From: Myxococcales bacterium
GTDB lineage: Bacteria > Myxococcota > Myxococcia > Myxococcales > Anaeromyxobacteraceae
Reading direction: 5' to 3'
Length of the DNA stretch: 64,000 nt
NCBI GenBank assembly: GCA_021806645.1
Contig: JAJZQX010000012.1
Location: 73,764 to 137,763, forward strand
The notes under the pieces were generated by a model. The model saw only the letters and a list, made by a program, of their open reading frames with translations, was not told the DNA's origin and did no database searches. Position numbers and translations under genes: made by a program. Positions within the stretch are counted from its first letter, which is position 1, and every line of letters starts with the position of its first letter. Positions 9,405 through 56,881 of this stretch are shown here, piece after piece.

Positions 9405-9795
9405 CCACCCGAAGTGAAGCCCGTCCCTGCAACGGGGGCTGGTGACGCGTGACCGAACGTGGTCGAGTCAGGTCCGCAGATTGAACCAATGCGCTGGGCC
9501 GCAGCGGAATTGACGCGGATCAAGTTCAGGCGATGGGGCGGACGCGCAAAATTTTCGGGTGCGGCTCTGCGTCGGAGTGGGAGAAGGTATGTCGCCACGG
9601 GCGAGTGTGCCGAAACTGGATCTGTGTCAAATCGCACCAGCTTGGGGCATTGGCCCCACTGCGCCGGATTCCGGCGGCCTCGAGCCGGGCCTGGGTGGCC
9701 GGTCAGTACCCCGGATCGACGACGCCATTTGGCCAGAAAGTCCTTTGGCTTCCATGGCGTCGGCGGGGCGCGCCCCTTGCACTTGGACATCGGTC

Positions 9796-12861: not shown

Positions 12862-12863
12862 CG

Positions 12864-13976: not shown

Positions 13977-14040
13977 CCCCGGGGCGCACGTGAAGACCAC
14001 TCAGCGCAGCTCCCGCATGGTGAACGACATGGCCGCAAGG

Positions 14041-35321: not shown

Positions 35322-35324
35322 CGC

Positions 35325-35771
35325 GTGGCTGGGGCGGGGCGCTGGGGCGCGCGGCGCGCCGTCGCGCTCGCGCTGCTGGGCTCGCTCGGCGCGGTGGCCG
35401 GCTGCGCCGGGATCTTCGGTCCGCGCCGCCCCTGGGTCGAGTTCACGCCCTACCCCGAGTCGCAGGTGGCCGGGGTGCGCGACCCGCACGACTACCTCGG
35501 CAAGCCGCTCTGCCAGCGCTGTCACCTGCCCGGTCGTGGGGGTCTGACCAGCGGCGCCATCTCGCTCTGCGTGAGCTGCCACGCCTTCGGCCACGGCAAC
35601 CACCCGGTGGACGTGGTCCAGAAGGCGCCGGCCACGGGGATCCCGCTGCTGGAGGGCGGGCGGGTGGCCTGCCACAGCTGCCACGATCCGCATGACCTGA
35701 AGCGCAACCGGGCGGGCTTGCGCTTCCCCTTCACCGAGCTCTGCCTCCGCTGCCACACCCGCCACGCGTAG
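35325..35771 (+). CDS. Tetrahaem c-type cytochrome lipoprotein (c3/c7-like)
   Basis: GTG start 3 nt after the radical SAM stop. Lipobox GAVAGC. Four CXXCH motifs: CQRCH, CVSCH, CHSCH, CLRCH. Confidence 0.8.
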   Translation: MAGAGRWGARRAVALALLGSLGAVAGCAGIFGPRRPWVEFTPYPESQVAGVRDPHDYLGKPLCQRCHLPGRGGLTSGAISLCVSCHAFGHGNHPVDVVQKAPATGIPLLEGGRVACHSCHDPHDLKRNRAGLRFPFTELCLRCHTRHA

Positions 35772-38268: not shown

Positions 38269-38660
38269 GGGTGCTGCTCCCCGCCGTCGGCGGCCCGTTC
38301 GGCCGGCGCGGCGGCCTGGCCGGCGCGACCGCGCTCCGCCTGCAGGATGGCCAGCTCCTGCGTCAGCCGGCGGACCTGGACGGTGAGGCGGGAGATGACG
38401 GTGGTGAAGTGGACGCTGATGAGGAGCAGGAAGATGAGCGCGAAGATGAAGACGGTGGTGGTGACGGTGACGGCGCCGATGACGCGGGTGATCCACTCGA
38501 TCAGCCCGTACCAGGTGGCCAGCAGCATCATGCCGACCGTGGTGAGCACCCAGAGCAAGGCGTACTCCTCCCGCAGGCGGCGGCGGCGGATCAGCTCCAT
38601 GACCACGAGGAAGGTGGTGATGGAGATGACGATGGCGAAGACGCGTTGGGTGGGGGTCAT
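38265..38660 (-). CDS. DUF2304-like small membrane protein
   Basis: MTPTQRVFAIVISITTFLVVMELIRRRRLREEYALLWVL... I recall this family as commonly following GT2 genes. ATGA overlap with the upstream GT2 gene. Confidence 0.65.
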   Translation of the reverse strand: MTPTQRVFAIVISITTFLVVMELIRRRRLREEYALLWVLTTVGMMLLATWYGLIEWITRVIGAVTVTTTVFIFALIFLLLISVHFTTVISRLTVQVRRLTQELAILQAERGRAGQAAAPAERAADGGEQHP

Positions 38661-39364
38661 GGCCGTTCGTTCCGCAGGGGGACCAGCGCCAGGGCGAGGG
38701 TCATCCGGAAGACGTAGTAGAGCGGCCGGAGGACGCCGCCGTGCATGCTCTTGCCGCCGGGGGAGCCGAGCATGCGGACCGGCACCTCGGTGAGCTTCAT
38801 GCCGGAACGGGCCACCATGGCCAGCACGTCGGCGTCCGGGTAGTCGTGGGGCCAGCGGTCGTGGGCGTAGAACTCGAGGGCCCGGCGGGAGATGGCCTGG
38901 AAGCCGCTGGTCGGGTCGGTGAGCCGCTGGCCGGAGAGGTGGCTGGCGACGGCGCCGAAGAGGGTCATGCCGAGCCGGCGCGAGAGCGGCGGTTTGTAGG
39001 AGCCGGGGTGGAGGAAGCGTGAGCCGACCACCACGTCGTGGCCGGCGAGCGCCGCCAGCAGCGGCGGGATCGAGGCCGGATCGTGCTGGCCGTCGGCGTC
39101 GAGCTGGAGCACCGCGTCGTAGGCGTGGCGCAGGGCGTAGCGGTACCCGGTCTGGAGCGCCGAGCCGTACCCCAGGTTGACCGGGTGCGTCGCCACGATG
39201 GCGCCCCCGGCCCAGGCCTCGGCGGCGGTGGCGTCGAGCGAGCCGTCGTCCACCACCAGCACGTCGGCGGCCACCTGGCCGCGCACCGCCTCGACCACGC
39301 CGCGGATGCGGAGGGCCTCGTTGAAGGCGGGGATGACGACGAGGAGCTTGGTGGGGACGGGCAT
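38657..39364 (-). CDS. GT2-family glycosyltransferase (polyprenol-phosphate sugar synthase, Dpm1/GtrB-like)
   Basis: ATG at 39364 (MPVPTKLLVVIPAFNE...). VVDDGSLD, QLDADGQHDP, TDPTSGFQA motifs. Confidence 0.85.
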   Translation of the reverse strand: MPVPTKLLVVIPAFNEALRIRGVVEAVRGQVAADVLVVDDGSLDATAAEAWAGGAIVATHPVNLGYGSALQTGYRYALRHAYDAVLQLDADGQHDPASIPPLLAALAGHDVVVGSRFLHPGSYKPPLSRRLGMTLFGAVASHLSGQRLTDPTSGFQAISRRALEFYAHDRWPHDYPDADVLAMVARSGMKLTEVPVRMLGSPGGKSMHGGVLRPLYYVFRMTLALALVPLRNERP

Positions 39365-39481
39365 GGAAGCTGCGATTCCGAGGGCGGATCCGGACTTGCG
39401 GCGGGCCGAACCATAGCCCAAGGCGGGCGCTGCGTGAACGAGGCGGCGGCCCGGCGACCCGGCGGGTCGCCGGCGCGGCGG

Positions 39482-40651
39482 TCAAGGAGGCCGGGGTGCG
39501 CCGCGGCCGGCACGAGCCGCCTCGACGAGCGCCAGCAGCTCGCCCTCGGCCTCCTCGGCGATCCGGTCCCAGGTGAACCGCTCCGCGACCAGCCGCCGGG
39601 CGGCGTCGCCGAGCCGGGCCCGAAGCGCCGGATGGTTCACCAGCCGGGCCATGGCGTCGGCCAGCGCCGCGGCGTCGCCAGGTGGCACCAGCAGGCCGTG
39701 GTCGGGGGACCGGACCACCTCGACCGTCCCGCCCTGCGGTGTGGCCACGATGGCCACGCCGGCGGCGGCCGCCTCGAGGATGGAGCTGGGGAGCCCCTCG
39801 GCGCAGCAGGACGGGTGGACGAAGAGATCGGCGGCGGTGAGGAGCCGCAAGACCTCGGACGGCGCGACCTGGCCCAGCAGGTGGAGCCGCGGCAGCCGGC
39901 CGGCCCGCCGGCGGAGCTCCCCGAGGGCCTGGCCGTCGCCGGCCACGGCCAGGTGGAGCGCCGGCAGCCGCGCCAGCGCGTCGAGCAGCACCAGCATCCC
40001 CTTGTCTGCGGTGACGCGCCCCGCGTAGAGCGCCAGCGGCTCGCCCGCGCCGACCCGGAGCTGCGCGCGCACCGCGGCGCGGTCGCCGCCCGGTCCCGGC
40101 AGGTCCACGCCGTTGGTCAGGAGACCGGCGCCGGGCCGCCCGAGGTGGGCCAGGAATTCCACCACCGCGCCGGAGACGCCGACGCAGTGGGTGGCGCGCC
40201 GGATCACCCAGCGGCCGGGACCGTGATCGACCGCGGCCGAGAGCCGGTCGGCCAGCGGACCGCCCAGCTTGACGTGGCCGGAGCCGTGCTCGACGTGGAG
40301 GTGGGGGAGAGCCTGGGCGCCCGCGAACCAGCCGCCCAGCCAGCTCGCGCTGAAGAAGCGGGTGTTGGTGACCACCACGTCGGGCTGGAAGTCGCGGAGC
40401 CAGGCCACGCCGCGCGCCAGGCGGAGGCCGGGGAGGAGCACCGGGAAGCGGGCGCTGAAGAGCGGCAGCACCGGCAGCCGCGCCACCTCGATGCCGTCCA
40501 CCGTCTCGCGGGGCTCGCCGCCACCCGTCGCCGAGGTGACCAGCGCCACGGCGTGGCCGCGCTTCACCAGCCGTGAGAAGATGGCGCGGGTGTACCGCTC
40601 CACCCCGCCGACGTGCGGGTGGAAGTGGCCGGTGAAGACGGCGATGCGCAC
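39482..40651 (-). CDS. GT4-family (GT-B fold) glycosyltransferase
   Basis: GTG at 40651 (VRIAVFTGHFHPHVGGVERY...). C-terminal EGLPSSILEAAAAGVAIVAT (EX7E-type region). Confidence 0.85.
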   Translation of the reverse strand: MRIAVFTGHFHPHVGGVERYTRAIFSRLVKRGHAVALVTSATGGGEPRETVDGIEVARLPVLPLFSARFPVLLPGLRLARGVAWLRDFQPDVVVTNTRFFSASWLGGWFAGAQALPHLHVEHGSGHVKLGGPLADRLSAAVDHGPGRWVIRRATHCVGVSGAVVEFLAHLGRPGAGLLTNGVDLPGPGGDRAAVRAQLRVGAGEPLALYAGRVTADKGMLVLLDALARLPALHLAVAGDGQALGELRRRAGRLPRLHLLGQVAPSEVLRLLTAADLFVHPSCCAEGLPSSILEAAAAGVAIVATPQGGTVEVVRSPDHGLLVPPGDAAALADAMARLVNHPALRARLGDAARRLVAERFTWDRIAEEAEGELLALVEAARAGRGAPRPP

Positions 40652-40688
40652 TGAACCTCGGCGACGAGAGACGAAGCCCGCGCTCCCG

Positions 40689-42590
40689 TCAGTAGGAGAG
40701 CGAGCTGTGCGGCTTGCCGTGGCAGACCAGGGCGCAGGAACCCCCGCGCCCACCGCTGGCGGTGTAGCGCGGAGCGGCCTGGCCGGGCAACGCCTTCACC
40801 ACGTCGAGGTCGAAGTCCACGAGGTGGGCGTTGTTGGCCGGGGAGCCGACCAGCGAGGAGACGCCGTGGGCGTTGTGGCAGGCCGAGCATGGGGTGGGGA
40901 TGGCGCCGGCCAGCGTCGCGGAGGCGCCGGGCGAGACGTGGCCCTGGTGGAGCGGGAAGGAGGACTGCGTCGAGAGGACGGTCTCGCGCCTGTGGCACTT
41001 GTAGCAGAGCGCGTAGGCGACGGGGCTCTCCGGCGTGCCGTCCTGCGTCTGGTAGTTCCGCTCCAGCAAGGGGCGGTAGATGGAGCCGTGCGGCCCGCGC
41101 GGACCGGTGCCGCCGCTGGCCCGCGTGTCGTCGGAGGCGTGGCAGTCGGAGCAGTAGATGACCGATGACGCCGTGAGCGGGGCGATCAGGCTCGGCACCA
41201 CCGGGTTGCGGCCGGGTCCGATGACCGGGTGGGCGGAAGCGCCGCTCGGCTCGAAGACGCGGCGCAGGTTCACCTCGGCCACGGCCCGCCGCGGGGAGCC
41301 GGCGCCCAGCGCGGCGCGCGCCTGCGGCTGGTTGGCGCTGTCGGCGTGGCACTTGAAGCAGACCTCGTATTCGTACCTGGCGGGGTCGGCCCGGCGCCCG
41401 GTCCGATCGACGCCCCAGGTGCCGGCCATGGCACCCTGGATGGCCGGGGCGACCGCCGCCCTGGCTCCGGTGGCCTGGTGCGGTTCGTGGCAATCGACGC
41501 AGGTGACGTGGCGAGCGGCCGACGGCGAGGTCTCTGGGAGGCGGACGGCACGGTCCGGTCCCTCGGCCCGGTCGTGGACGGTCGTGCCGGTGATGGGGGC
41601 GGCGTGGGCGGATGGGCGGAGCGTGGCGCCGCGGATGTCGGCCCTGGCGTGCTGGCCGTCGTGGCACGCCAGGCACATGCCGTCGTCGCCGAGATCGGTC
41701 GGGCGCACCAGCCGGCCGCGCTTGTCTCCATTGTGCGGCACGTGGCACGCGGCGCAGCGCAGGTCGGCCAGCGTGGTGGAGGCTCCGGTCACGGGATCGC
41801 TGATGGTCCTGGTCGAGGTCAGGTGGGACGCGTCGGGCGACTCCAGGCGCGCGGCGTCGTGGCAGGTGAGGCAGAGCTCGGCGCGGCGCATGCTCTTGAC
41901 CAGGAACTGGCCCTCGCCGGTCACCGGGAGCCGCTCCCGGTGAGGGTCGTGGCAGGCGACGCACTGCAACTGGTTGGTCCGGTCGAGCCGGACCGGATCG
42001 TCCGGCGGCGGCGGGTGGGAGGTCGCCGACGGCGCCGGCACGAAGGAGACGGGGTGGGTCCCGCGCAGGTCGGTGCCGAGGTTGGCGCGGTGGCCGGCAG
42101 GGAGCCTGCCGCCGGGAGCGTTGCCGCGCAGCTGGATCAGCCGGGTGCGGGTCTGGCCGAGGGCGATGGTCCCGTCGTGGCACGAGAGGCAGATCCGCGA
42201 GGCTCCGGTGGGGCGGGAGGTGGTGCGGGCGCTGGTGGTGCTGCTCGTGTAGGGGATGATCGGAGCGGACTCGGCCGGGCGCCCATCGGCATGCTCGCCG
42301 CCGTGCGGCACATGGCAGAAGACGCAGGCGTTGGCCTCCACGTCCGACTTGAAGGGGCCAGGGCCGCTGGTCGAGAGGTCGTGCTTGCTGCCGATGACGC
42401 CGAGCGGCGCCGCGCCGGCGCGCGGCGCGACCTGTTGGGCCGCCGGCGAGGGGGGGCGCCGGGGTCGGGCGGAGGCGCCGGCCGGCGCGGGGGACGCCGT
42501 GGCGGGCGGGCGCGGCGCGACGGGCTCGCGGGCCGGAAGGTCCGGGTTGATCGGCGCCGCGAGGGCGGTCAGCAGGATCAGCAGCTTCAT
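40689..42590 (-). CDS. Multihaem c-type cytochrome (11 CXXCH plus a C-terminal CX3CH) with a Pro/Ala-rich N-terminal linker
   Basis: Signal-like MKLLILLTALAA. First motif GSKHDLS...CVFCHVPHGG, then CLSCH, CVACH, CLTCH, CAACH, CLACH, CVDCH, CFKCH, CSDCH, CYKCH, CSACH, and CALVCH (nt 40719-40736). Confidence 0.85.
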   Translation of the reverse strand: MKLLILLTALAAPINPDLPAREPVAPRPPATASPAPAGASARPRRPPSPAAQQVAPRAGAAPLGVIGSKHDLSTSGPGPFKSDVEANACVFCHVPHGGEHADGRPAESAPIIPYTSSTTSARTTSRPTGASRICLSCHDGTIALGQTRTRLIQLRGNAPGGRLPAGHRANLGTDLRGTHPVSFVPAPSATSHPPPPDDPVRLDRTNQLQCVACHDPHRERLPVTGEGQFLVKSMRRAELCLTCHDAARLESPDASHLTSTRTISDPVTGASTTLADLRCAACHVPHNGDKRGRLVRPTDLGDDGMCLACHDGQHARADIRGATLRPSAHAAPITGTTVHDRAEGPDRAVRLPETSPSAARHVTCVDCHEPHQATGARAAVAPAIQGAMAGTWGVDRTGRRADPARYEYEVCFKCHADSANQPQARAALGAGSPRRAVAEVNLRRVFEPSGASAHPVIGPGRNPVVPSLIAPLTASSVIYCSDCHASDDTRASGGTGPRGPHGSIYRPLLERNYQTQDGTPESPVAYALCYKCHRRETVLSTQSSFPLHQGHVSPGASATLAGAIPTPCSACHNAHGVSSLVGSPANNAHLVDFDLDVVKALPGQAAPRYTASGGRGGSCALVCHGKPHSSLSY

Positions 42591-43603
42591 GGCCTGTCTC
42601 CAGTGAACCTGTACGTTTCGACGCGGCGGTGCTGGCCGTCGGCTACCACCAGCAGGTCGCCGGCGATGGCCACCCCGGCCGGCATGGACAGCTGGCCCGG
42701 GCCGTCACCGATCCCCCCGGCGGCATAGATGAACCTGCCGTCAGCCTCGAACGCCAGCACCAGGCCGCGCTGCGTGTCGGTCACGTAGATCCGGCCAGCG
42801 GCGTCCACCGCCACGGCCTTGGGGCGGGAGAACCGGCCGCCGTCGTCGCCGGCCTCGCCGAAGCTGGAGAGCAGGGTGCCGTCCGGCCCGAACCGCTTCA
42901 CCTTGTAGTTGAGGGCGTCGATCACCAGCAGCGTGCCGTCGGGGGCCGCCGCCAGGCCGGTGGGGAAGTTGAAGCCGGCGTCGCCGTCGCCGCGGGCTCC
43001 GAAGCGCAGGACCTCCGCGCCCGAGGCGTCGTAGGCCACCACCTGGTGGCGCGGGGGGTCGGCGACGTAGAGCCGCTCGCCGAGGAGGGCCAGGGCGGTG
43101 GGACGCTCCAGCGTGCCGCTGCCCCAGCGGTCGCAGCGGCCGTCGGGCGCGATCCGGACCACCACGGCGAGGCCGGCGTCGGCCACGTAGACGACGCCGC
43201 CGGGGCCGATGGTCACGGCCATGGGCGCGCCCCACTCTCCGTCGCGGCAGCGGACCGGCTCGAAGGCCCCGCTGGCCAGGTCGGCGCGGAGCACGCCCGG
43301 TGCGTCGGGATCGGCCACGTAGACCGCGCCGGGGAGGGCCGCCACGCCGAAGGGACGGACCAGCACCGGCTCGCCGGCGCCCGGCTCGAGGCCCAGGATG
43401 GCGTCCACGACGCGGCGGAAGCCGGAGCGCTGGTCGGGCCGATCCGGGTCCGGGAGCGAGCGTTCGAAGATCAGGCGGGCGGCGGCCGGCGGCCGGGGCC
43501 AGGCCGGAGGGGGCCCGGGCGCGACGCGCGGGGTCGTGGTGCCGGCGCAGGCGGTCGCCCACAGGGCGAAGGCGATGACGGCCGGGAGGAGGGGTGCGCG
43601 CAT
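42587..43603 (-). CDS. NHL-repeat six-bladed beta-propeller lipoprotein
   Basis: Lipobox LWATAC. Blades such as AVYVADPDAPGVLRADL, VVYVADAGLAVVVRI, RLYVADPPRHQVVAYD, TLLVIDALNYKVKRF, RIYVTDTQRGLVLAFE, DLLVVADGQHRRVETY. ATGA-type overlap with the downstream cytochrome gene. Confidence 0.8.
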   Translation of the reverse strand: MRAPLLPAVIAFALWATACAGTTTPRVAPGPPPAWPRPPAAARLIFERSLPDPDRPDQRSGFRRVVDAILGLEPGAGEPVLVRPFGVAALPGAVYVADPDAPGVLRADLASGAFEPVRCRDGEWGAPMAVTIGPGGVVYVADAGLAVVVRIAPDGRCDRWGSGTLERPTALALLGERLYVADPPRHQVVAYDASGAEVLRFGARGDGDAGFNFPTGLAAAPDGTLLVIDALNYKVKRFGPDGTLLSSFGEAGDDGGRFSRPKAVAVDAAGRIYVTDTQRGLVLAFEADGRFIYAAGGIGDGPGQLSMPAGVAIAGDLLVVADGQHRRVETYRFTGDRP

Positions 43604-43607
43604 GTGG

Positions 43608-45338
43608 CTAGCGCCGGAACGACCTCGTGACCGAGAAGAAGAGCAGGTTCTGGTTGCCGGTGGCCCCGCCCCGGGTGCCTCCGCTGGAGAGCTGGTCGTA
43701 GAGGGAGAACTGGAAGGCGCCGATGTAGTAGGCCAGGTTGAGGCTGAGGCCGCGTTCCCACTGGGTCGGGCGGCCGGGCGTCGTCACCGACGAGTACCGG
43801 CCCGCCAGGGAGAGGAAGAGATTGAAGGCGGTGGGGACCGTGGCGGTGATGGTCCCGTAGGTGGCCCTGGTGTTGAAGTCCAGCGGCACCAGGGAGCCGG
43901 GCACGGAACCCGGAGTCAGGAACTCCGAGGCCTGGTCGTTCATGCCCGCGTTGAGCGCGAGCGCATATCCACTCCGGTAGGCCTGCGCCGTGAGCAGGGC
44001 GCTGGTGTAGCCGCTGGTGCCGAAGGTCGGGGATTCGCTGCGGGAGTAACCGACGTCGAGCCGGGAGGTGAACGACCAGCCGAAGGGGAGGCCGGAGGCG
44101 CTGGCGGTGCCCCGGAGCGAGGTGCGGGTGCCGGCGGCGGCGTTGGAGTTGTCGTCGTGGCTGGCGCTGAATCCGGCGCTGCCGTACCAGGACCCGATTG
44201 GCCGCGAAACGTCGATGCCACCGCCGACGCCGTAGGCGGCCTGGCTGCCCCCGGCCTCGGGCTGGAGGAGGCCGGCGCTCGCGGCGGCCGTGGCCGAGAT
44301 CAGGTACCCGCCACCCTGCCTGGCCCAGCGCGCGCTGGCGCCCACCGCCTCGCCGCGGTCTCTCGTCGCCACCGTCCCGACGCGCGAGTCCGCGACCGAC
44401 ACCGATGCGCTGAGGCCGTAGCCCCACGCCGGCGTGAGCTGGTGGTTCCCGTACGCGCTGACCGAATGGCCGATATTCTGGCGCAGCAGGCCGCCAGGGG
44501 CCTCGAAGAGCGAGTTGGAGTAGGAGTAGCCACCGCCGGCGCTCAGGCTCTGGCTGGCCTTCCACTGCGTCCAGGCCGAGACGTACTCGTTGTCCACTCT
44601 TGGGTTGAGCGGGTTCTCCACCGTGGGAAGGCGCAGCGTGTATGAGGCCGCCACCTGGGCGGTGGCGTTGGTGGCGAGCTGGGCCTGGGCGCGGACCGAG
44701 CCGACGTGGGTGCGGTAGTTGGTCTCGGCGTAGTCGCCGGCGGCCCACCGGGTATCGTAGGTCAGCGAGTAGTTGAGCCCTTCGACTGATTGTGAGAGAT
44801 CGGCTCTCAGGGTGGTGTCGCTCGACCTGACCGGGGCCACCCCGATGCTCCGGTTGGTAGAATCGGTCTGGGAAGCCGAGGTGGTCAAGGTCGGCGTGCC
44901 GACGGTGCCGATGATCACCATCCCGGATCGAGAGTCAACCCGGGTCGAGCCGGTCCGGCCGCCGGCCCGGTCAGCGGAGAAGTCGATGGTGGTGCGGCTC
45001 GCCCCTGCGTTCACGTTCACCGGCGTGTTGCGGAGGGCGCCCAGCGACAGCCGGTAGTTGAGGGCGTCGCTGGCGCTGCCCCCCTGGGCCCGGTAGCCCA
45101 GGTAGGAGGCCGAGGCGCCGAGGTCGAGGACGCCCGGACCGAAGACGGTGGCGTCGAGGGCCAGGCTCCCCGTGAACCAGAGCTGGTCGTGGCCGGAGCG
45201 TGGCATGGTGTCGGACCATGCGTCAATTCGCTGCAGGCTGAGGCCGGCCGAGCCGGACAGGCCGACGCCGGCGGCGGCCGGCCCAGCCGCGGCGAGCAGG
45301 GTGAGCCACAGCAGCGCTCGCGGGGTCATGGCCCTCAT
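43608..45338 (-). CDS. Large (~576 aa) predicted outer-membrane beta-barrel protein
   Basis: ATG at 45338 (MRAMTPRALLWLTLLAAAGPAAAG signal). G/S/T/Y/A-rich sequence with alternating hydrophobic pattern. ATGA overlap with the upstream gene. No domain recognised with certainty. Confidence 0.6.
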   Translation of the reverse strand: MRAMTPRALLWLTLLAAAGPAAAGVGLSGSAGLSLQRIDAWSDTMPRSGHDQLWFTGSLALDATVFGPGVLDLGASASYLGYRAQGGSASDALNYRLSLGALRNTPVNVNAGASRTTIDFSADRAGGRTGSTRVDSRSGMVIIGTVGTPTLTTSASQTDSTNRSIGVAPVRSSDTTLRADLSQSVEGLNYSLTYDTRWAAGDYAETNYRTHVGSVRAQAQLATNATAQVAASYTLRLPTVENPLNPRVDNEYVSAWTQWKASQSLSAGGGYSYSNSLFEAPGGLLRQNIGHSVSAYGNHQLTPAWGYGLSASVSVADSRVGTVATRDRGEAVGASARWARQGGGYLISATAAASAGLLQPEAGGSQAAYGVGGGIDVSRPIGSWYGSAGFSASHDDNSNAAAGTRTSLRGTASASGLPFGWSFTSRLDVGYSRSESPTFGTSGYTSALLTAQAYRSGYALALNAGMNDQASEFLTPGSVPGSLVPLDFNTRATYGTITATVPTAFNLFLSLAGRYSSVTTPGRPTQWERGLSLNLAYYIGAFQFSLYDQLSSGGTRGGATGNQNLLFFSVTRSFRR

Positions 45339-47761
45339 GGCTTCGCTCCACCGCCGACGACCGTGATGGGCACGTCGACCACGTACTCGGCGTCGGCCGG
45401 GGGGAACAGCCAGGACGCCGAGCTGGCCTTGAGACAGGCCTCCAGCTCGTCGCCCCCGAGGTCGCCGTTGCCGACCTTGGTCCCGGTGACCTTGCCGGTC
45501 GGGGCGAGGTTGACCCGAAGCCTCCCCTCGGCGCCGGTCAGTCCCCGGCGCACCATCTGCTCCGAGACGCACCGCTCGATGGCCGGCTGGACCGCCACCA
45601 CCGCGTCGCGGAGCTGGCGCCTGGCGGTCTCGCCGCCCGCCAGCATGTCGCCGGCCGCCACCTCGCCGCCGCGGTCTCCGCGGGCCTGGCCGGCGGCGCG
45701 CAGCGCGGAGACCACCACGTCCACGCCTTGCGCGCCGGGCCGGGTGGTGATGCGCGTGACCACCTGCTTCGCCGGCAGCTTGCCGATGCCGACGACCAGG
45801 GCCTTCACCTCCTGGGCGCGCCGGTTGGCCTCGTTCATCAGGCCCGGCTCCCTGGCGCGGGCCCAGACCAGCACCTCGCAGTTCTCGCGGGCTGCCAGCC
45901 TGGCGATGCCGTCGATGGCCTCGCGGTCCAGCTCGGAGAGCGCGGAGGCCGGGGTGGCGAAGGTCACCACGGTGGCGGCGGCCACGACCTTCTCGACGGC
46001 GCCGCCGGGGTCGTACGTCTCGCGCCGGGCGTTGCCGGCGCCGGTCGCGGCGCCGCCCGCCTTCATGATCGCGGTGGGTGACTTGACGACCATGACGAAG
46101 ACCGACCTGTCCTTCGGGACCGGTGGGAGCGGCACGCCCGGCGCCGGCGCCCTGGTGGCGCCGCGCCGCTGCTCGGCGGCGCGCTGCTCGAGCAGGGTGA
46201 GCCGCTCGGCGCGGACGTCGAGGCGGCGCTGCCAGGTGTCGAGGCGCTGTGCGCGGGCATGGAGCTGGCGGGTGCTGGCGTCCACGCGCTCGCCGCGCGC
46301 GACCAGGCGGCTCTCCATGGCGGCCAGCATCCGCTGGCGCGCGGCCAGGGCCTTTCGGCGGAACTCGCCCTGGCGCGCCGGGGTCTTCTCGGCGCCGGCC
46401 TGGGCCAGCAGCCGCTCGGCCTCCTTCCGCTCGGCCTGTTCGCGGGCCTGGGCGTCACGCTCGGAGCCCAGCGCGGCCTCCCTGGTCGGGTTGAAGCCGC
46501 GCTCCTGGGCCGCCAGTTGCCGCTCGGCCGCGCCCAGCTCGGACTCCTGCGACTCGAGCTGGCGCTGCGGGCCGGTGGGGGCGCCGCGGACCACGATGCG
46601 CCGCTCGCGGGCCTCGAGCTGGGCCTCACGGGCCGCCAGCGCCCGCTCGCGCTCGTCGAGCTTGCGGGCGTCGGCGTCGAGGGTGGCCTCGTCGGCGTCG
46701 AGCGACTCCTCGGTGGCGCGGAGCCGCTTCAGCCGGGCCTCGGCCTGGAGTTCCTGGTCGCGAAGCTGGGCGGCGAGGACGTCGTCGGCGCTCGGGACGG
46801 GGACGCGTGGTGGCGCCGCCGCCAGCGAGCCGGCCTGCGCGGGCGGCGTGTACGGAGCGTACTGCCGGTGGCGAGGCTGGCCCAGTCGGCCCGGGTCGGC
46901 GCCGTGGATCCTGAGCCGGAACCGGGGGCGGTCGCCGAGGGCGAGGGACGGCGCGGCCTCCTCTTCGTCGGGCGGTGGCGCGACCGGCGCGGCGGCCGCC
47001 ACGGTGGCGCGGCGCTTCGGCACCCCATGGAACCCGAACCCGAGCGAGACCCGGACCCCCTGCTCGTCGGGGAGGTAGCTGGCGCCGAGCGACAGGCCGA
47101 CCCGCTCGGACAGGTCCCAGCGGATGGCGGCGCCAAGCAGGCTGCCCCGCGGGTTGCGGACCGCCTCGATCACCGCTTCCAGCCCGCTCCGGTGCCGGAG
47201 CTGGGCGGCCAGGCCGGCGGTCGGGCCGGCGGGGCCGGCGGCCTGCTTCTCGTAACCGGCGAAGCCGGCCAGCTTGAGGAGGCCCACCTGCGCGGTGGAG
47301 AGGATGAGGCGGCCGCCGCCGGCGCCGTTGTCGTTGAAGCGATCGAGGTAGCCGTCCACGGCCAGCCCGGGGCGCCAGCCAGAGGCGGCGACGAGGCCGG
47401 CCTTGAGGGCGGCGCCGAAGAGCATGGGGGCCGGGCGGGGATCGCCGGGGAAGCCGGACTCGCGCGCCGACACGCCCAGCTCCAGGCGGCCCAGGCCGAC
47501 GCCGAGTGAAAGAGGCAAGGGGCCGACGCGGTCCGTGGAGCCGGCGGCGTGGTCCCAGCCGAGCTCGAAGCCCAGCATGGCCGTCGAGGGTTCGATCACC
47601 TCGGCGGAGGGCACGTCGAGGAGGCCCGCCTCGCCCTGCCGGGTCGGGAAGTGGCCGGCCAGCGCCGCTTGCGGCGCCACCAGCAAGGCGAGGACGACGA
47701 GAGGTCCAGCGGTCGGGAGGCGGCTCAACTCACGCCCTCCCGTCGCCGCCACGCTCGCCAT
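45335..47761 (-). CDS. Large envelope protein: N-terminal barrel-like domain, long Glu/Arg/Ala coiled coil, OmpA-like region and an AgmX/PglI-type C-terminal domain
   Basis: Signal LVVLALLVAPQAALAG. Coiled-coil repeats (EARLKRLRATEESLDADEATLDADARKLDERERALAAREAQLEARERR...). C-terminus ...VQPAIERCVSEQM...GKVTGTKV...LEACLKASSASWLFPP. Confidence 0.65.
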   Translation of the reverse strand: MASVAATGGRELSRLPTAGPLVVLALLVAPQAALAGHFPTRQGEAGLLDVPSAEVIEPSTAMLGFELGWDHAAGSTDRVGPLPLSLGVGLGRLELGVSARESGFPGDPRPAPMLFGAALKAGLVAASGWRPGLAVDGYLDRFNDNGAGGGRLILSTAQVGLLKLAGFAGYEKQAAGPAGPTAGLAAQLRHRSGLEAVIEAVRNPRGSLLGAAIRWDLSERVGLSLGASYLPDEQGVRVSLGFGFHGVPKRRATVAAAAPVAPPPDEEEAAPSLALGDRPRFRLRIHGADPGRLGQPRHRQYAPYTPPAQAGSLAAAPPRVPVPSADDVLAAQLRDQELQAEARLKRLRATEESLDADEATLDADARKLDERERALAAREAQLEARERRIVVRGAPTGPQRQLESQESELGAAERQLAAQERGFNPTREAALGSERDAQAREQAERKEAERLLAQAGAEKTPARQGEFRRKALAARQRMLAAMESRLVARGERVDASTRQLHARAQRLDTWQRRLDVRAERLTLLEQRAAEQRRGATRAPAPGVPLPPVPKDRSVFVMVVKSPTAIMKAGGAATGAGNARRETYDPGGAVEKVVAAATVVTFATPASALSELDREAIDGIARLAARENCEVLVWARAREPGLMNEANRRAQEVKALVVGIGKLPAKQVVTRITTRPGAQGVDVVVSALRAAGQARGDRGGEVAAGDMLAGGETARRQLRDAVVAVQPAIERCVSEQMVRRGLTGAEGRLRVNLAPTGKVTGTKVGNGDLGGDELEACLKASSASWLFPPADAEYVVDVPITVVGGGAKP

Positions 47762-48170
47762 CGCTGGCGGCGCCGCGGGTGAGGCCGAACTGGTTGAGGG
47801 TCCGTTCGACCGACCGGACGCTCACGGCGTGGCCGAGCCGAAGGAGGTCGCCGGCGATCAGCGCGGCGCTGCGGTTGGGCTCGTGGAGGCGGGCCCGGAC
47901 GATGAACCGGACCACCTCGAGCGGACGGCGCCAGGCCGTCCGCGGGCCGGGTGGGCGCGAGAAGAGCCCTTCGAGCCCCTCTTCGCGGAACCGGCGGAGC
48001 TTTTCGTAGTAGGTGCTGCGGGACCGCCCGAACTCGGAGAGGACCTCGTCAAGCGGCCGCCCGCTCGTCTCCCCTTCCATGAGCATGAGGAGATCCGACC
48101 CGGCCTCGTCGTCGCGACGGAGCGGGAGCAGTCCCCCGGGACCTCGAATGGCGTGGAGTTCGGTCTTCAC
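47730..48170 (-). CDS. Helix-turn-helix protein resembling the N-terminal DNA-binding domain of IS481/IS630-type transposases. No catalytic domain is present.
   Basis: LDEVLSEFGRSRSTYYEKLRRFREEGLEGL...AALIAGDLLRLGHAVSVRSVERTL. It overlaps the start of the next gene by 32 nt. Confidence 0.55.
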   Translation of the reverse strand: MKTELHAIRGPGGLLPLRRDDEAGSDLLMLMEGETSGRPLDEVLSEFGRSRSTYYEKLRRFREEGLEGLFSRPPGPRTAWRRPLEVVRFIVRARLHEPNRSAALIAGDLLRLGHAVSVRSVERTLNQFGLTRGAASDGERGGDGRA

Positions 48171-48229: not shown

Positions 48230-48271
48230 GAGCGGAAAGAAGCGCGGGGCGCCGGTTGCACGCCCCGCGCT
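48230..48271 (-). terminator. Intrinsic terminator downstream of the tetrahaem cytochrome gene
   Basis: Perfect 10-bp GC stem (GCGCGGGGCG, 48242-48251, pairing with CGCCCCGCGC, 48261-48270), 9-nt loop, followed on the minus strand by TTCTTTCC. Confidence 0.6.
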
Positions 48272-48281
48272 CGGGTGCCGC

Positions 48282-49046
48282 CTACTTGATGTGGCAGCCG
48301 CCGCAGCGGCCGTTGGTGACCGAGGTCGGGACGCGGAGGAAGAACGGGTTCGCGCTGGCCACGTTCTCGGTGTGGGGCTCGTGGCAGGTGCCGCACTCCA
48401 CCTGGAAGGCTCCGCCGGAATTGGCGAAGAGCTTCAGGTAGGCGCCGCCTGCCGACGCGCCGGACACGCACTCCGGGATGCCGGCCTGACAGCCGGCGGC
48501 GGTGGCCGTGCCGTACTGCGCGGTGACGGCGCTGGAGCCGACTTGCCCGGCGAAGGGGATGCCGACCGGGTGCTGGCCGTTGAGGTTGGTGTACGCGAGG
48601 TTGCTGGCGAGGAAAACGTTGCCGCCTGACACGGTCACGTTGCCGGTCGCGGTCGCGCTGATGGTGGCGGCGACCTGCGTGTAGGTGCCGAACTTGTTGA
48701 CGGTGGTGTTCATGGCCACCGAACCGTCATGGCAGGAGAGGCACTTCTGCGAGGCGGAGCCGAGGGCGGCGTTGGTGGCCGGAAGCGGCGTGCCGTTCGC
48801 GGTTGCGGTCGGAGACGTGAAGCCGGTCCCGGTCGGCGCCGGGCGGGCCCAGAGCGTGCCCTGGGTGGTGTTGGCGTTGTGCGGCATGTGGCAGAAGCGG
48901 CACATGTCCACGCCGGCGTCGGTGAAGTAGACGTTGCCCTGAGTGTTGGTCGAGGTCAGGTTGTGCTTGGTGTTGGAGATGGCGGCGGTGGCCATGGTCG
49001 GGATGGCGAGGGCCACCACGAAGAGGACCTTGAGAGCGTTGCGCAT
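48282..49046 (-). CDS. Small (254 aa) tetrahaem c-type cytochrome, OmcE/OmcS-like candidate filament subunit
   Basis: Signal MRNALKVLFVVALAIPTMATA. Four CXXCH motifs: CRFCH, CLSCH, CGTCH, CGGCH. Exactly 8 His in the mature part. First motif SNTKHNLTS...CRFCHMPHNA. The last motif sits at the extreme C-terminus (RCGGCHIK*). The protein is T/A/G/N-rich. Confidence 0.85.
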   Translation of the reverse strand: MRNALKVLFVVALAIPTMATAAISNTKHNLTSTNTQGNVYFTDAGVDMCRFCHMPHNANTTQGTLWARPAPTGTGFTSPTATANGTPLPATNAALGSASQKCLSCHDGSVAMNTTVNKFGTYTQVAATISATATGNVTVSGGNVFLASNLAYTNLNGQHPVGIPFAGQVGSSAVTAQYGTATAAGCQAGIPECVSGASAGGAYLKLFANSGGAFQVECGTCHEPHTENVASANPFFLRVPTSVTNGRCGGCHIK

Positions 49047-49170: not shown

Positions 49171-49187
49171 TAGCAACCCCGATGCCA
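49171..49187 (-). promoter_or_regulatory. Sigma54 (-24/-12) promoter candidate for the tetrahaem cytochrome gene
   Basis: The minus strand reads TGGCAT-CGGGG-TTGCTA, with consensus spacing for TGGCAC-N5-TTGCW. The predicted leader is ~115 nt and ends in GGAGGAAG before the ATG. Confidence 0.6.
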
Positions 49188-49287: not shown

Positions 49288-50319
49288 CTATTGCTGGGCC
49301 GGGACCTCGACGAACTCGTAGACGTTGATGCGGGGCAACTGGGCGCTCTGCTCCCCGACGAAGATCCGCTTCCCGTCCGGGTGGATGGCGATGGGGCCCG
49401 GCATGTCGAGGTACTCGAGCATGTTGACCTTGCCGCCGAAGTACATCAGCAGCTGGTTCTTCTGGTTGAACATCTGGACGGTCGCGGTCTCGCCGTCCAC
49501 GACGTAGAGGATGCCGCGCGGGTCCACGGCCACGCCCTTGGGCCGGGCGAACTGCCCCGGGCCGATGCCGGACTCGCCGAAGAAGCGGATCAGGCCGCCT
49601 TCCGGGTCGAAGACCTGGATCCTGAAGTTGAGCATGTCCGAGACGTAGAGGTTGCCGTCCTTGTCGAGCGCCAGGTAGCCGGGGAAGTTGAACTGGCCTG
49701 GCGCGGTGCCGCGCGCGCCGATGGTCCGCAGCAGCTTCCCGGCCGTGCTGTACACCAGCACCCGGTGGTTCTGCGACTCGGGGAAGGAGCCGTCGGTCAC
49801 GTAGACCAGCTGCCGCTTGCGATCGAGGGCCAGGGCCGTGGGGCGCTCGGCGTCGCCGCCGAACTCGCGGAGGAACCGGCCGTCTGTGGAGAAGACCCGG
49901 ACCCGCCGCGCCGGGGGCTCGGAGACGTAGACGTTCCCCTCCTGGTCCACCGCCACGCCGAACGGCTGCATCATGCCGAAGTCGGGGGCGAAGCGATCGG
50001 CCCGGCCCTGGGCGAAGTCGAAGCGGACCACCTGGCCTCGCGGCTGGTCGGTCACGTAGAGGAGCTGCCCGTCCGGCGAGAAGGCGAAGCCGGAGGGCTG
50101 CTCGAAGGTGATGGGCTGGGTGCCGAGCAGGGCGCGCTGGAAGCCGCCCCAGCCGGTCTTCTCGATGTCGGCCCCCGAGGTGATGGCCTGTACGAAGCGG
50201 ATCCGGGCCGGGTCCGGGGGTGGGGGCCAGCGGACCTTGGCGCCCTTGAGCGGGGCCACCGCGCAGGCCGAGGCGATGAGCATCAGGGAGACGGCGGTGA
50301 GGCGCAGATCACGCGGCAT
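49288..50319 (-). CDS. NHL-repeat six-bladed beta-propeller lipoprotein (paralog of 42587..43603)
   Basis: Lipobox LIASAC. Blades LLYVTDQPRGQVVRFDF, NVYVSEPPARRVRVFS, LVYVTDGS...HRVLVYS, NLYVSDMLNFRIQVFD, ILYVVDGETATVQMFN. It shares the N-terminal WPPPP..ARIRF motif with the other NHL lipoprotein. Confidence 0.85.
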   Translation of the reverse strand: MPRDLRLTAVSLMLIASACAVAPLKGAKVRWPPPPDPARIRFVQAITSGADIEKTGWGGFQRALLGTQPITFEQPSGFAFSPDGQLLYVTDQPRGQVVRFDFAQGRADRFAPDFGMMQPFGVAVDQEGNVYVSEPPARRVRVFSTDGRFLREFGGDAERPTALALDRKRQLVYVTDGSFPESQNHRVLVYSTAGKLLRTIGARGTAPGQFNFPGYLALDKDGNLYVSDMLNFRIQVFDPEGGLIRFFGESGIGPGQFARPKGVAVDPRGILYVVDGETATVQMFNQKNQLLMYFGGKVNMLEYLDMPGPIAIHPDGKRIFVGEQSAQLPRINVYEFVEVPAQQ

Positions 50320-53713: not shown

Positions 53714-53729
53714 TGCAAGCCGGGTGCCG
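53714..53729 (-). promoter_or_regulatory. Sigma54-type promoter candidate for the 17-haem operon. It implies a very short leader.
   Basis: The minus strand reads CGGCAC-CCGGC-TTGCA with correct GG/GC spacing. The predicted transcription start is only ~5 nt upstream of the ATG at 53698, which lowers confidence. Confidence 0.4.

Positions 53730-55501: not shown

Positions 55502-55505
<4 letters not shown>
54000..55505 (+). CDS. NtrB-type sensor histidine kinase (HAMP, HisKA, HATPase_c) with a periplasmic CXXCH motif
   Basis: Two TM segments flank a ~130-aa periplasmic domain containing SCNRCHEG (nt 54450-54464). H-box GLAHEIKNPLAG. N/G boxes (NLCLNAVQAM, DDGPGI, GNGLGLAI). Confidence 0.85.

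Positions 55506-56881
<1,376 letters not shown>

Follow-up and report, generated by a model that had tools for sequence, protein, structure and literature searches.

A predicted OmcE-type cytochrome-nanowire gene cluster in an Anaeromyxobacter-like bacterium, with an additional envelope-spanning protein and a candidate filament end subunit

This work describes a minus-strand gene cluster in the window, the whole 64,000-nucleotide stretch of DNA that was analyzed. In the direction of transcription, the cluster begins with genes for a 17-haem cytochrome, a PPIase, an E-type propeller lipoprotein, an OmcE-like subunit, and an HTH protein. It continues with an 808-aa protein, a 28-strand barrel, a D-type propeller, a dodecahaem cytochrome, and a series of glycosylation-type genes. 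The stretch from the 808-aa protein to the dodecahaem cytochrome had been singled out in a first-pass annotation as a unit of four genes joined by ATGA or 4-nt junctions. The four ORFs were all found on the minus strand at the coordinates given below, and reading the junction sequences confirmed how they are joined: the 808-aa and barrel genes share an ATGA overlap (45338-45335), the barrel and D-type NHL genes are separated by a 4-nt gap (TAG ccac ATG, 43608/43603), and the D-type NHL and 12-haem genes again overlap by ATGA (42590-42587). The unit is nonetheless larger than the four genes proposed, as the 5' neighbours on the same strand (17-haem, PPIase, second NHL, OmcE-like, and HTH genes) belong to it too.

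About 0.5 kb upstream of the four-gene cassette lies the gene for the OmcE-like protein (48282..49046, minus strand), a 254-aa tetrahaem protein presumed to be a filament subunit from its homology to PDB entry 7TFS. The alignment to 7TFS, the G. sulfurreducens OmcE filament, is full length (E 6.3e-18), and the protein also matches PDB entry 9YUQ (16 chains; E 1e-14), which probably corresponds to the OmcE bundle from D. soudanensis in Petersen et al. An alignment of 14 sequences shows four CxxCH motifs and four additional His to be invariant; the window copy, which is rich in Ser, Thr, and Asn, has exactly eight His. In OmcE itself, one haem takes a ligand His from the neighbouring subunit (PMC9473688).

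Candidate expression signals frame this gene. The sigma-54-type -24/-12 match TGGCATCGGGGTTGC (49173..49187, minus strand) precedes the start codon of the omcE-like gene by 127 nt; it is a consensus match only, one of just three such matches in the whole window. Another of the same kind, likewise a consensus match only, lies just upstream of the 17-haem gene (53715-53729, minus strand). Directly 3' of the omcE-like stop codon, a 13-bp G+C hairpin is followed by UUCUUUCC (48235..48270, minus strand). Together with its flanks (71 nt), the hairpin folds at -39 kcal/mol (z -3.0 versus shuffles) and, judged by its sequence, looks like a terminator or attenuator. A consensus scan for promoters and terminators was uninformative in DNA of 72% G+C; it also passed over the hairpin, whose hand-counted loop of 9 nt exceeds the scan maximum of 8.

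The dodecahaem cytochrome (633 aa; 40689..42590, minus strand) closes the cassette. Counting of haem motifs (11 CxxCH and one C-terminal CxxxCH) supported the earlier description of a 12-haem cytochrome with a Pro/Ala-rich linker, the Pro/Ala-rich stretch being found N-terminal. A signal peptide is followed by this stretch (to about residue 65), an OmcE-like tetrahaem module (about residues 65-250), and an octahaem module. The family profile matches OmcE 7TFS with an E value of 1.8e-48, covering OmcE residues 12-232, and 9YUQ at E 7e-39; the match to MtrA (6R2Q_A) has an E value of 1.9e-9, and that to OmcS only 2e-4. The kinship is also visible within the window, where BLASTP of the dodecahaem protein against the OmcE-like protein gave an E value of 5e-12. 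The N-terminal module has the same eight His as OmcE, including the N-terminal His of KH(D/N)L, and by this sequence evidence the N-terminal part of the cytochrome is a complete OmcE-like module. Orthologues of the 12-haem family occur across about 70 loci, and all 24 Cys and 28 His are conserved across 64 of them. In two loci (L006 and L019), the gene is naturally split into a 4-haem and an 8-haem gene. The idea that the Pro/Ala-rich stretch serves as a handle for a TonB-C-like domain was rejected: locus L005 has the 808-aa gene without the stretch, and a poly-Pro stretch occurs in a Nitrospiraceae locus that lacks the 808-aa gene. As a separate observation, the family carries four conserved His beyond the need of 12 bis-His haems.

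For the barrel gene (43608..45338, minus strand), the longest ORF opens at a GTG (654 aa), and the ATG at 45338 gives a 576-aa product with a signal peptide; homologues are 558-581 aa long. A large beta-barrel had been predicted at this position, and strand counting on an AlphaFold2 model (17 homologues as input; mean pLDDT 83.6) agreed, giving a predicted outer-membrane barrel of 28 strands with no plug. No Pfam or NCBIfam family matches this protein, and a sequence search against the PDB returned nothing meaningful. The top PDB fold match is MtrB (6R2Q_B; E 1e-10, TM 0.49/0.44, 10% identity), with ushers among the weak matches (TM about 0.25). The matches to MtrB are weak and partly generic for large barrels. 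An hhalign comparison with 48 barrels of other OmcE-type loci, the Geobacter one excepted, gave a probability of 96.9% (E 1.4e-10, 515 columns). On this profile evidence, the window barrel is remotely homologous to the canonical barrels of those loci (650-720 aa), compared to which it is much smaller and very divergent. An HMM of the canonical barrels alone misses it, and the link is made only through profile-profile comparison or Acidobacteriota intermediates.

Two NHL beta-propeller lipoproteins are encoded, each beside an OmcE-fold cytochrome. The D-type propeller (338 aa; 42587..43603, minus strand) adjoins the 12-haem gene, and its Pfam NHL match (E 6.5e-19) and lipobox (WATAC) corroborate the initial call of an NHL lipoprotein in the cassette. 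Next to the OmcE-like gene, the E-type propeller (343 aa; 49288..50319, minus strand) has a Pfam NHL E value of 2e-24 and the lipobox IASAC. Single-sequence scores gave no clean split of the two propeller classes, whereas class profiles did, assigning 23/27 E-type and 27/27 D-type propellers correctly in a held-out test. The 338-aa propeller scores 233.7 with the D-type profile versus 210.9 with the E-type profile; for the 343-aa propeller, the scores are 283.9 with the profile of OmcE-adjacent propellers and 249.4 with that of 12-haem-adjacent ones.

The 808-aa protein (45335..47761, minus strand) is a lineage-specific envelope protein, characterized here through an AF2 model (31 homologues), Foldseek, and the NF033768 family. 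In the model, a signal peptide precedes a 12-strand barrel at residues ∼60-245, which Foldseek relates to KdgM (TM 0.78), NanC (0.63), and FapF (∼0.5). A disordered Pro-rich linker (residues 251-319), helices (325-534), an alpha/beta domain (555-673), and an alpha-beta-beta-alpha-beta domain (711-802) follow. Of the architecture first proposed for this protein, the barrel-like N-domain is retained, with 12 strands in the model, while the coiled coil of ∼250 aa is replaced by about 210 aa of helices. The suggested OmpA-like segment was not recovered: Pfam OmpA gave an E value of 0.16 at residues ∼550-690 (12.8 bits; cut-off, 27.2), and a profile search of the PDB for such a domain gave nothing. 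The AgmX/PglI-type C-terminal domain, on the other hand, was borne out at the domain level, with NF033768 matching 12/12 orthologues tested (best E 3.2e-13); at 31.5 bits, the window copy falls under the 40-bit cut-off. Among the orthologues tested, the GltJ C-terminus model matched in six and TonB_Cterm in one.

Full-length GltG and GltJ models score only 16.6 and 15.7 bits against the 808-aa protein (cut-offs, 450 and 650). The link to myxobacterial envelope and motility complexes drawn in the first-pass annotation thereby stands for the C-terminal domain only and not for the protein as a GltG/GltJ orthologue. While this domain resembles those of GltG/GltJ (AgmX, Myxococcus gliding) and of the TonB family, the 808-aa protein would be anchored by a predicted 12-strand outer-membrane barrel rather than an inner-membrane helix, and it occurs in a cytochrome-cluster context. 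The amyloid-secretion channel FapF (PDB 5O68) likewise combines a 12-strand outer-membrane barrel and a periplasmic coiled coil in one chain. Compared to FapF, however, the domains come in the opposite order, fold similarity is modest (TM about 0.5), and there are two extra C-terminal domains. A folded haem protein cannot fit through a 12-strand pore. All 55 of 55 homologues come from Anaeromyxobacter-like sources.

The remaining genes of the cluster were assigned mainly through Pfam. The first encodes a 568-aa secreted cytochrome (51992..53698, minus strand) with 17 CxxCH motifs in doubled-CXXCH repeats (Paired_CXXCH_1 E 2e-82, 8 stretches), a signal peptide ending in AMA before Q, and a Gly/Ser-rich tail. 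Its orthologues occupy the same position in loci L001, L002, L004, and L005, and it shares repeat kinship with the pentahaem lipoprotein found upstream of canonical barrels. The SurA-like PPIase (536 aa; 50343..51953, minus strand) is predicted to be periplasmic, with a signal peptide and two PpiC domains (Rotamase_2 E 2e-23, Rotamase E 9e-16, SurA_N weak), and occurs in 13 of the examined loci. The cytoplasmic HTH protein (146 aa; 47730..48170, minus strand; Pfam HTH_32/HTH_28) yielded no relative when the other 80 loci were searched, and its gene lies directly upstream of the 808-aa gene in 7/7 related contexts. An origin as an IS remnant (IS481/IS630 N-terminal-like) was considered, the NCBIfam IS481 model giving 45 bits against a cut-off of 224. 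Because the gene is found at the same site in 7/7 related clusters, it was instead regarded as a conserved cluster member. The 808-aa and HTH proteins occur only in Anaeromyxobacter-like relatives.

Downstream of the cytochrome gene, a block of glycosylation-type genes (35788..40753, minus strand) comprises GT4 (40753-39482), GT2 (39421-38657), DUF2304 (38660-38265), and an 826-aa TPR protein (38268-35788), with ATGA and GTGA overlaps. The GTG start of the GT4 ORF call overlaps the 3' end of the cytochrome gene, and the true start is therefore probably further downstream. Such genes also follow the cluster in L001 and L002 and are absent there in L004. On the other side, divergent plus-strand genes encode a HAMP histidine kinase (54000-55505) and a sigma-54-dependent response regulator (55424-56881). 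Both genes also border the cluster in L005 and L088; the kinase gene borders it in L001, L002, and L004.

Conservation was gauged in a comparison set of 88 loci, drawn from MAGs whose labels span about ten phyla. The first-pass annotation had named lack of conservation of the cassette with cytochromes as the outcome that would speak against it; the survey returned the opposite, strong conservation with cytochromes. The cassette order is identical in 7/7 related contigs examined, far beyond chance. More widely, barrel, NHL, and 12-haem genes follow one another in exactly this order in 44/67 barrel-bearing loci of the set, and an NHL gene adjoins the 12-haem gene in 66/88 loci. The canonical order elsewhere is E-N-5haem-B-N-D (OmcE, NHL, pentahaem, barrel, NHL, dodecahaem).

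By homology and synteny, then, the four genes are the predicted outer-membrane half of an OmcE-type cytochrome-nanowire cluster. The omcE cluster described by Petersen et al. comprises OmcE, two multihaem cytochromes, two beta-propeller lipoproteins, and a large barrel, which those authors propose as secretion pore or anchor; such clusters often continue into glycosylation genes, their "second pattern" (bioRxiv 10.1101/2025.10.22.684050). Our comparison drew on the preprint text and on loci of taxa other than G. sulfurreducens (GSU0615-0618 region). The clusters known from Desulfuromonadia (G. sulfurreducens GSU0618 region, D. soudanensis WTL) have the same parts list as the window, which also shares the GT2/GT4 and TPR genes after the cluster and the regulators alongside. 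The window differs in its Anaeromyxobacter-like host, from a phylum (Myxococcota) outside the five listed in the preprint, in its extra 808-aa envelope protein, HTH protein, and PPIase, and in its smaller, very divergent barrel. It also lacks the pentahaem lipoprotein seen upstream of the barrel in canonical clusters of other phyla and has the soluble 17-haem relative instead. The locus had initially been read as a different way of moving a cytochrome or electrons across the outer membrane. An outer-membrane cytochrome system other than MtrCAB is indeed present; since it matches the omcE-type nanowire cluster, however, it is not an unknown conduit architecture but a lineage-specific variant of a recently described one, namely, an Anaeromyxobacter-like variant with an additional envelope-spanning protein.

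The distinction from MtrCAB made at the outset was upheld. MtrCAB (PDB 6R2Q) also combines a very large plug-less barrel with co-encoded multihaem cytochromes. The window barrel, however, has 28 predicted strands compared to 26 in MtrB, no Pfam family, and no MtrB/PioB sequence-family membership. It would be wider than MtrB, lumen size being estimated from strand number only. The window cytochrome falls far under the cut-offs of DmsE/MtrA TIGR03508 (38.3 bits; cut-off, 192.2) and OmcA/MtrC TIGR03507 (28 bits; cut-off, 209.3), and in place of an MtrC-type surface decahaem lipoprotein there are propellers and an OmcE-type subunit. The Geobacter Pcc/Ext systems, compared through NCBIfam models only, gave 25.6 bits for the GSU2203 family (cut-off, 325) and 17.7 for ExtN (cut-off, 200).

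Other filament systems offer parallels. In work by Shen et al. 2025 (Cell Chem Biol), omcS is reportedly flanked by genes for a prolyl-isomerase, beta-propellers, channel-like outer-membrane components, and large multihaem cytochromes. As cited in PMC13194489, that study reports roles in OmcS folding, secretion, and morphology for the PPIase OscH, channel-like OscEFG, and OscD. Insofar as these accounts go, and by domain type and description only, the osc (OmcS-companion) genes of G. sulfurreducens are of the same protein types as those around the window subunit gene, although that subunit is OmcE-type and not an OmcS-type hexahaem. Chaperone-usher pili (FimD/PapC) are alike in logic only, with subunits that polymerise extracellularly, a large barrel in the outer membrane, partner proteins dedicated to them in the periplasm, and a special end subunit. 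There is no homology to them; the window subunits are haem-bearing and folded, and their partners are propeller lipoproteins rather than Ig-fold chaperones.

In our best explanation, to which we assign a probability of roughly 60%, the locus is an OmcE-type nanowire cluster in which the barrel passes or anchors subunits, the dodecahaem cytochrome is the end subunit, and the 808-aa protein is a lineage extra. Haem-loaded OmcE-like subunits would be made in large amounts; their gene has its own sigma-54-like promoter match and hairpin. They would cross the outer membrane through the 28-strand barrel or be anchored there. The dodecahaem cytochrome would be made in step with the barrel and the D-type propeller, and its OmcE-like module may join the polymer by the OmcE interface, in which a His of one subunit ligates a haem of the next. 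The octahaem module could then link the haem chain to periplasmic carriers, running through or beneath the barrel like MtrA in MtrB, and a position at the cell-proximal base is favoured over the distal tip. Each propeller paralogue may serve its neighbouring OmcE-fold cytochrome, perhaps keeping it unpolymerised in the periplasm, and the PPIase would aid the folding of loop-rich proteins. The 808-aa protein would anchor in the outer membrane by its 12-strand barrel, with the helical rod and TonB-C-like end reaching into the periplasm. Its most likely task, guessed from its domains, would be to tether the complex to, or position it against, the wall or a partner in the inner membrane. Points that weigh against this explanation are the weak fold match of the barrel to MtrB, the small size of the window barrel beside the canonical ones, and the four surplus His of the dodecahaem family. 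No experiments on omcE-cluster barrels, propellers, or dodecahaem cytochromes were found in the accessible literature, and the physiological importance of OmcE filaments is disputed (PMC11077965, PMC13194489). A bolder and doubtful extension would make the dodecahaem cytochrome, an OmcE-fold module fused to an octahaem wire, the missing end piece of OmcE-type nanowires, joined His to haem and plugging the filament into a barrel of 28 or more strands. Each OmcE-fold protein would have its own propeller in a chaperone-usher-like pathway conserved in MAGs that carry the labels of about ten phyla, to which Anaeromyxobacter relatives would have added a "reverse TonB" rod, anchored in the outer membrane and spanning the periplasm.

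Three other readings compete with the nanowire cluster as just outlined. It is unlikely, we think, that the locus encodes a porin-cytochrome conduit of the Mtr/Pcc type, in which the dodecahaem cytochrome in the 28-strand barrel would feed monomeric surface cytochromes, including the OmcE-like protein, with no polymer formed and the OmcE module reflecting shared ancestry only. Such a conduit would fit the barrel's best fold match (MtrB), the weak match of the cytochrome family to MtrA, and the translational coupling of barrel and cytochrome genes, as in mtr and pcc operons. It would leave no role, however, for two dedicated propellers or the PPIase, and neither MtrA, MtrB, nor MtrC family membership was found. 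The OmcE module is, moreover, nearly always encoded with a full-length OmcE homologue that retains the His for inter-subunit haem ligation. Two members of the OmcE family have been solved as filaments (7TFS and 9YUQ); a filament in the Anaeromyxobacter-like lineage is a prediction.

Within the nanowire reading, the dodecahaem cytochrome might instead be a distal tip or initiator, exported first via an usher-like barrel, with OmcE added beneath and the eight extra, more exposed haems touching minerals or partner cells. We consider this improbable. Petersen et al. did not find a filament base or tip piece in omcE operons (bioRxiv 10.1101/2025.10.22.684050), and the N-terminal OmcE module would fit their description of an end piece; a stoichiometry of one per filament also agrees with coupling to the barrel gene, and ushers are among the barrel's fold matches. 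Yet a folded 633-aa, 12-haem protein would need to pass fully through the barrel, and the dodecahaem cytochrome was found to have no adhesin-like or mineral-binding domain. An octahaem module placed after the last haem of the OmcE module would extend the chain one way only, the end in question being structure-dependent. Least credible, and by our estimate very improbable, is a myxobacterial envelope, motility, or polymer-export machine (Glt-like or FapF-like) formed by the 808-aa protein and the barrel and merely adjoining cytochrome genes. The AgmX/PglI-type domain common to GltG/GltJ, the FapF- and KdgM-like N-terminal barrel, and the glycosyltransferase genes after the cluster could be taken in its favor. 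Against it, the 808-aa gene lies between the OmcE-like and barrel genes in 7/7 contexts and overlaps the latter by ATGA, while the barrel family adjoins OmcE-like genes in many phyla without any 808-aa protein; no other glt genes were found near the cluster, and the full GltG and GltJ models score far under cut-off.

Current reviews count the exit of cytochrome nanowires from the cell, the site of their anchoring, and the way they are charged among the open questions (PMC12307469). No part of OmcE-type clusters is better conserved across many phyla than the triad of barrel, propeller, and dodecahaem cytochrome. Because the dodecahaem cytochrome also contains a complete OmcE module, this protein is a concrete candidate for the filament base or tip, and it probably serves as the end subunit that is associated with the barrel. 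The 808-aa protein, in turn, suggests a connection from the outer-membrane machine to the remaining envelope. The kind of system is already described in the form of omcE clusters; the 808-aa accessory protein is new. The same cluster is also present in cultured Anaeromyxobacter oryzae, which provides an experimentally accessible host.

The four minus-strand ORFs that the first-pass annotation had placed at 40689-47761 are present there and joined as described, by ATGA at 45338-45335, TAG-ccac-ATG at 43608/43603, and ATGA at 42590-42587. They encode an 808-aa protein, a large predicted beta-barrel, an NHL lipoprotein with the lipobox WATAC, and, as claimed, a 12-haem (dodecahaem) cytochrome with 11 CxxCH motifs and one C-terminal CxxxCH. 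The same annotation had suggested that they could be a different conduit architecture; they are not a new architecture but part of an omcE-type cluster. This cluster is real and strongly conserved, and it is a new form, specific to this lineage, of a system type that was described in 2025. Five further same-strand genes lie upstream of the four. Two of them encode cytochromes, one of 568 aa with 17 CxxCH motifs and one of 254 aa with four haems; the others encode a SurA-like PPIase (536 aa), another NHL lipoprotein (lipobox IASAC), and an HTH protein (146 aa), the stop of which overlaps the 808-aa gene in its start region. The genes for GT4, GT2, DUF2304, and an 826-aa TPR protein lie downstream and likewise overlap at their stops and starts. 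The genes for a histidine kinase and for a sigma-54-dependent response regulator (55424-56881) are transcribed divergently. The window has a G+C of ~72%, and its third-position G+C indicates minus-strand genes without a break from ~53.7 kb to 35.8 kb. In the description by Petersen et al. (bioRxiv 10.1101/2025.10.22.684050), omcE clusters of the smallest type invariably contain genes for the OmcE subunit, a pair of beta-propeller lipoproteins, two multihaem cytochromes, and a beta-barrel of large size, "putatively functioning as a secretion or anchor." In a more frequent form, GT2/GT4/GT39, TPR, and regulator genes are present as well. All of these parts, those of the commoner form included, occur in the window cluster.

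In every related contig examined, the gene order is cytochrome-PPIase-NHL-OmcE-HTH-808aa-barrel-NHL-dodecahaem, and it is kept down to 32% identity for the barrel and 41% for the 808-aa protein. The record given as the window's own (GCA_027327715.1) agrees with this order in the short part compared; in the cultured Anaeromyxobacter oryzae (AP025591.1, cluster near 6.655-6.669 Mb), the NHL-OmcE pair is relocated downstream. An OmcE-alignment scan of species-representative genomes confirmed at least 539 loci, 80 of which were kept. The MAG titles of these cover about ten phylum-level labels, namely, Planctomycetota, Bacteroidota, Acidobacteriota, Verrucomicrobiota, Gammaproteobacteria, Desulfobacterota-type lineages, Nitrospirota, Zixibacteria, Calditrichota, and Myxococcota. 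The 2025 preprint names five phyla, and OmcE-type modules extend far beyond these (loci L008-L087); the confirmed loci include one contig labelled Thermoplasmata archaeon (L076). Many scan matches fall on the dodecahaem protein, in its N-terminal module, and not on free-standing OmcE genes (L008-L087).

The ORFs of all loci were labelled with iterated profiles. In the canonical clusters of other phyla, the order is OmcE-like, NHL, pentahaem cytochrome, barrel, NHL, and dodecahaem, and exceptions are mostly permutations of the same genes. The distribution of the cassette across genomes had been proposed as a check on the first reading, and part of the cassette does recur: the exact order barrel-NHL-dodecahaem is found in 44 of 67 barrel-bearing loci, and an NHL gene adjoins the dodecahaem gene in 66 of all 88 loci compared. 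The most conserved core of the omcE-type cluster is the barrel-propeller-dodecahaem triad.

Judged by its sequence, the 254-aa cytochrome (48282-49046, minus strand) is an OmcE homologue. It matches the Geobacter sulfurreducens OmcE filament subunit (PDB entry 7TFS) over its full length with an E value of 6.3e-18. It also matches PDB entry 9YUQ (16 chains; E = 1e-14), which is probably the OmcE bundle from Desulfuromonas soudanensis in Petersen et al. When the protein is aligned with 13 relatives, its four CxxCH motifs and another four histidines do not vary, and the window protein has exactly eight histidines. In OmcE filaments, one haem gets its histidine ligand from the neighbouring subunit (PMC9473688; PMC12307469). 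The translation also has long loops rich in Ser/Thr/Ala and, by eye, about five N-x-S/T sequons (NLT, NTT twice, NGT, and NVT). These features agree with the downstream glycosyltransferase genes and with reports of glycan-like densities on the OmcE of G. sulfurreducens (Petersen et al., bioRxiv 10.1101/2025.10.22.684050).

The dodecahaem protein, for its part, was shown to carry a whole OmcE module. Among the loci, a single-sequence search recovered about 70 orthologues at full length, with E values from 1e-138 to 1e-50, and 24 Cys and 28 His are conserved in 64 of the orthologues. A 20-sequence profile matches OmcE 7TFS with an E value of 1.8e-48 (OmcE residues 12-232), 9YUQ with 7e-39 (residues 1-218), and MtrA (6R2Q_A) with 1.9e-9. 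Within the window, dodecahaem residues 68-221 align to the OmcE-like protein (E = 5e-12), with the fourth haem motif following in register. All eight histidines of the OmcE scheme are conserved, including the N-terminal His of KH(D/N)L, and in most orthologues the mature N-terminus lies a few residues ahead of that histidine, as in OmcE. At two loci, the protein is split into adjacent genes for a 4-haem OmcE-like and an 8-haem part (L006 16695-18658, a Nitrospiraceae MAG; L019 14535-16435, an Acidobacteriota MAG), a natural dissection of the two modules. This domain relationship may be unreported so far.

For the propellers, profiles were built from half of the OmcE-adjacent and half of the dodecahaem-adjacent proteins, with the window lineage excluded. 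Held-out propellers were classed correctly in 23 of 27 cases (OmcE-adjacent) and 27 of 27 cases (dodecahaem-adjacent), and both window propellers were assigned to their expected classes. This separation shows that each OmcE-fold cytochrome has an ancient propeller paralogue of its own.

The large beta-barrel claimed in the first-pass annotation was borne out by an AlphaFold2 model from 17 homologues, which has 28 strands, no plug, and a mean pLDDT of 83.6. Read from the ATG at 45338, the protein is 576 aa long and carries a signal peptide; its homologues in the database have 558-581 aa. Only 18 word-sharing relatives occur among 5.8 billion proteins, and a profile of the barrel has 227 matches among 1.84 billion representatives, those at full length all having about 575-595 aa. 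Among PDB folds, the model comes closest to MtrB (6R2Q_B; E = 1e-10, TM 0.49/0.44), and ushers and barrels of 22 to 26 strands follow at lower scores. The window barrel was not reached directly by a profile of 48 canonical barrels (640-740 aa). The two families are linked through 580-aa Acidobacteriota barrels, which the canonical profile matches at 1e-41 and one of which the window-family profile matches at 4e-8, and by a profile-profile match (probability 96.9%, E = 1.4e-10, 515 columns). By these links, the window barrel belongs to the superfamily of OmcE-cluster barrels, in which it is small and divergent.

The 808-aa and HTH proteins have no relative in the other 80 loci, and their genes are additions specific to the Anaeromyxobacter-like lineage. 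The database holds 55 homologues of the 808-aa protein, all of about 770-817 aa, and those with an organism name are labelled Anaeromyxobacter. In a model built from 31 homologues, a predicted 12-strand barrel (residues ~60-245) is followed by a linker that is disordered and rich in Pro, and then by helices (325-534) with a pLDDT above 95. After these come an alpha/beta domain (555-673) and an alpha-beta-beta-alpha-beta domain (711-802). In fold, the barrel is similar to KdgM (TM 0.78), to NanC, and, less closely, to FapF. The window protein has no Pfam match and a weak NCBIfam match to the AgmX/PglI C-terminal domain, a model matched by all 12 orthologues tested (best E, 3e-13); six of the 12 also match the GltJ C-terminus, and one matches a TonB C-terminal model. 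The barrel-like N-domain and AgmX/PglI-type C-domain proposed earlier are supported, and the OmpA-like segment is not. As full-length GltG or GltJ, the protein scored far under the cutoff.

The lineage also differs by what it lacks. Canonical clusters have a pentahaem doubled-CXXCH lipoprotein directly upstream of the barrel, whereas the window lineage is without it; instead, a 17- to 21-haem relative with the same doubled-CXXCH repeat opens the cluster. The position of the pentahaem lipoprotein points to a cytochrome associated with the barrel, which can be compared with the lipoprotein cytochromes in Geobacter Ext conduits. It is found in many loci of L014-L086 (e.g., L075 5861-6550), with a lipobox such as LIPAC or LVPAC.

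In the most likely scheme for the whole cluster, the dodecahaem protein would be the end subunit of the filament. We favour the base of the filament for it; the main alternative places it at the tip. The modelled barrel would serve as the outer-membrane passage or anchor, the propellers would be dedicated partners, and the 808-aa protein, to go by its predicted domains, would be an envelope tether. In the work of Shen et al. 2025 on the OmcS osc cluster, OscH is reportedly a prolyl isomerase, OscEFG channel-like, and OscD propeller-like. One account of this analogous cluster assigns folding to OscH, secretion to OscE, F, and G, and morphology to OscD (PMC13194489).

Directly 3' of the omcE-like stop codon is a 13-bp G+C hairpin followed by U-rich UUCUUUCC (48235-48270, minus strand); a 71-nt fold there has -39 kcal/mol and a z score of -3.0. 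It looks like a terminator or attenuator, which would let the subunit gene far outexpress the downstream assembly genes, a reading that is suggestive only. The window has three sigma-54-type -24/-12 matches, two on the coding strand of the cluster: an intergenic one at 49173-49187 (minus), 127 nt before the omcE-like gene, and one at 53715-53729 (minus), a short way ahead of the first cytochrome gene. The pattern shows no enrichment across the whole window, and as expression signals of the cluster these matches, like the hairpin, are suggestive only.

Elsewhere in the window, a 2201-aa multihaem cytochrome (13966-20571, plus strand) has about 18-20 haem motifs, Fn3 domains, and the Geobacter CxxxxCH...CxxCH motif. 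Upstream of it are a 750-aa 5-haem cytochrome and an ORF for an 1100-aa PKD/TSP3-repeat protein (ORFs 9559-12861 and 11724-13976, both plus); these calls overlap by ~1.1 kb, which means that one or more of their boundaries must be wrong. Next, at 20593-21894, come ResB-like genes for cytochrome c biogenesis, and the region may be a second extracellular electron-transfer locus. Finally, a B12-binding radical SAM enzyme (33807-35321, plus) adjoins a 149-aa 4-haem doubled-CXXCH cytochrome (35322-35771, plus). The pair, which possibly has a role in cytochrome or cofactor modification, also flanks the cluster in the related locus L002 and in A. oryzae (L088).
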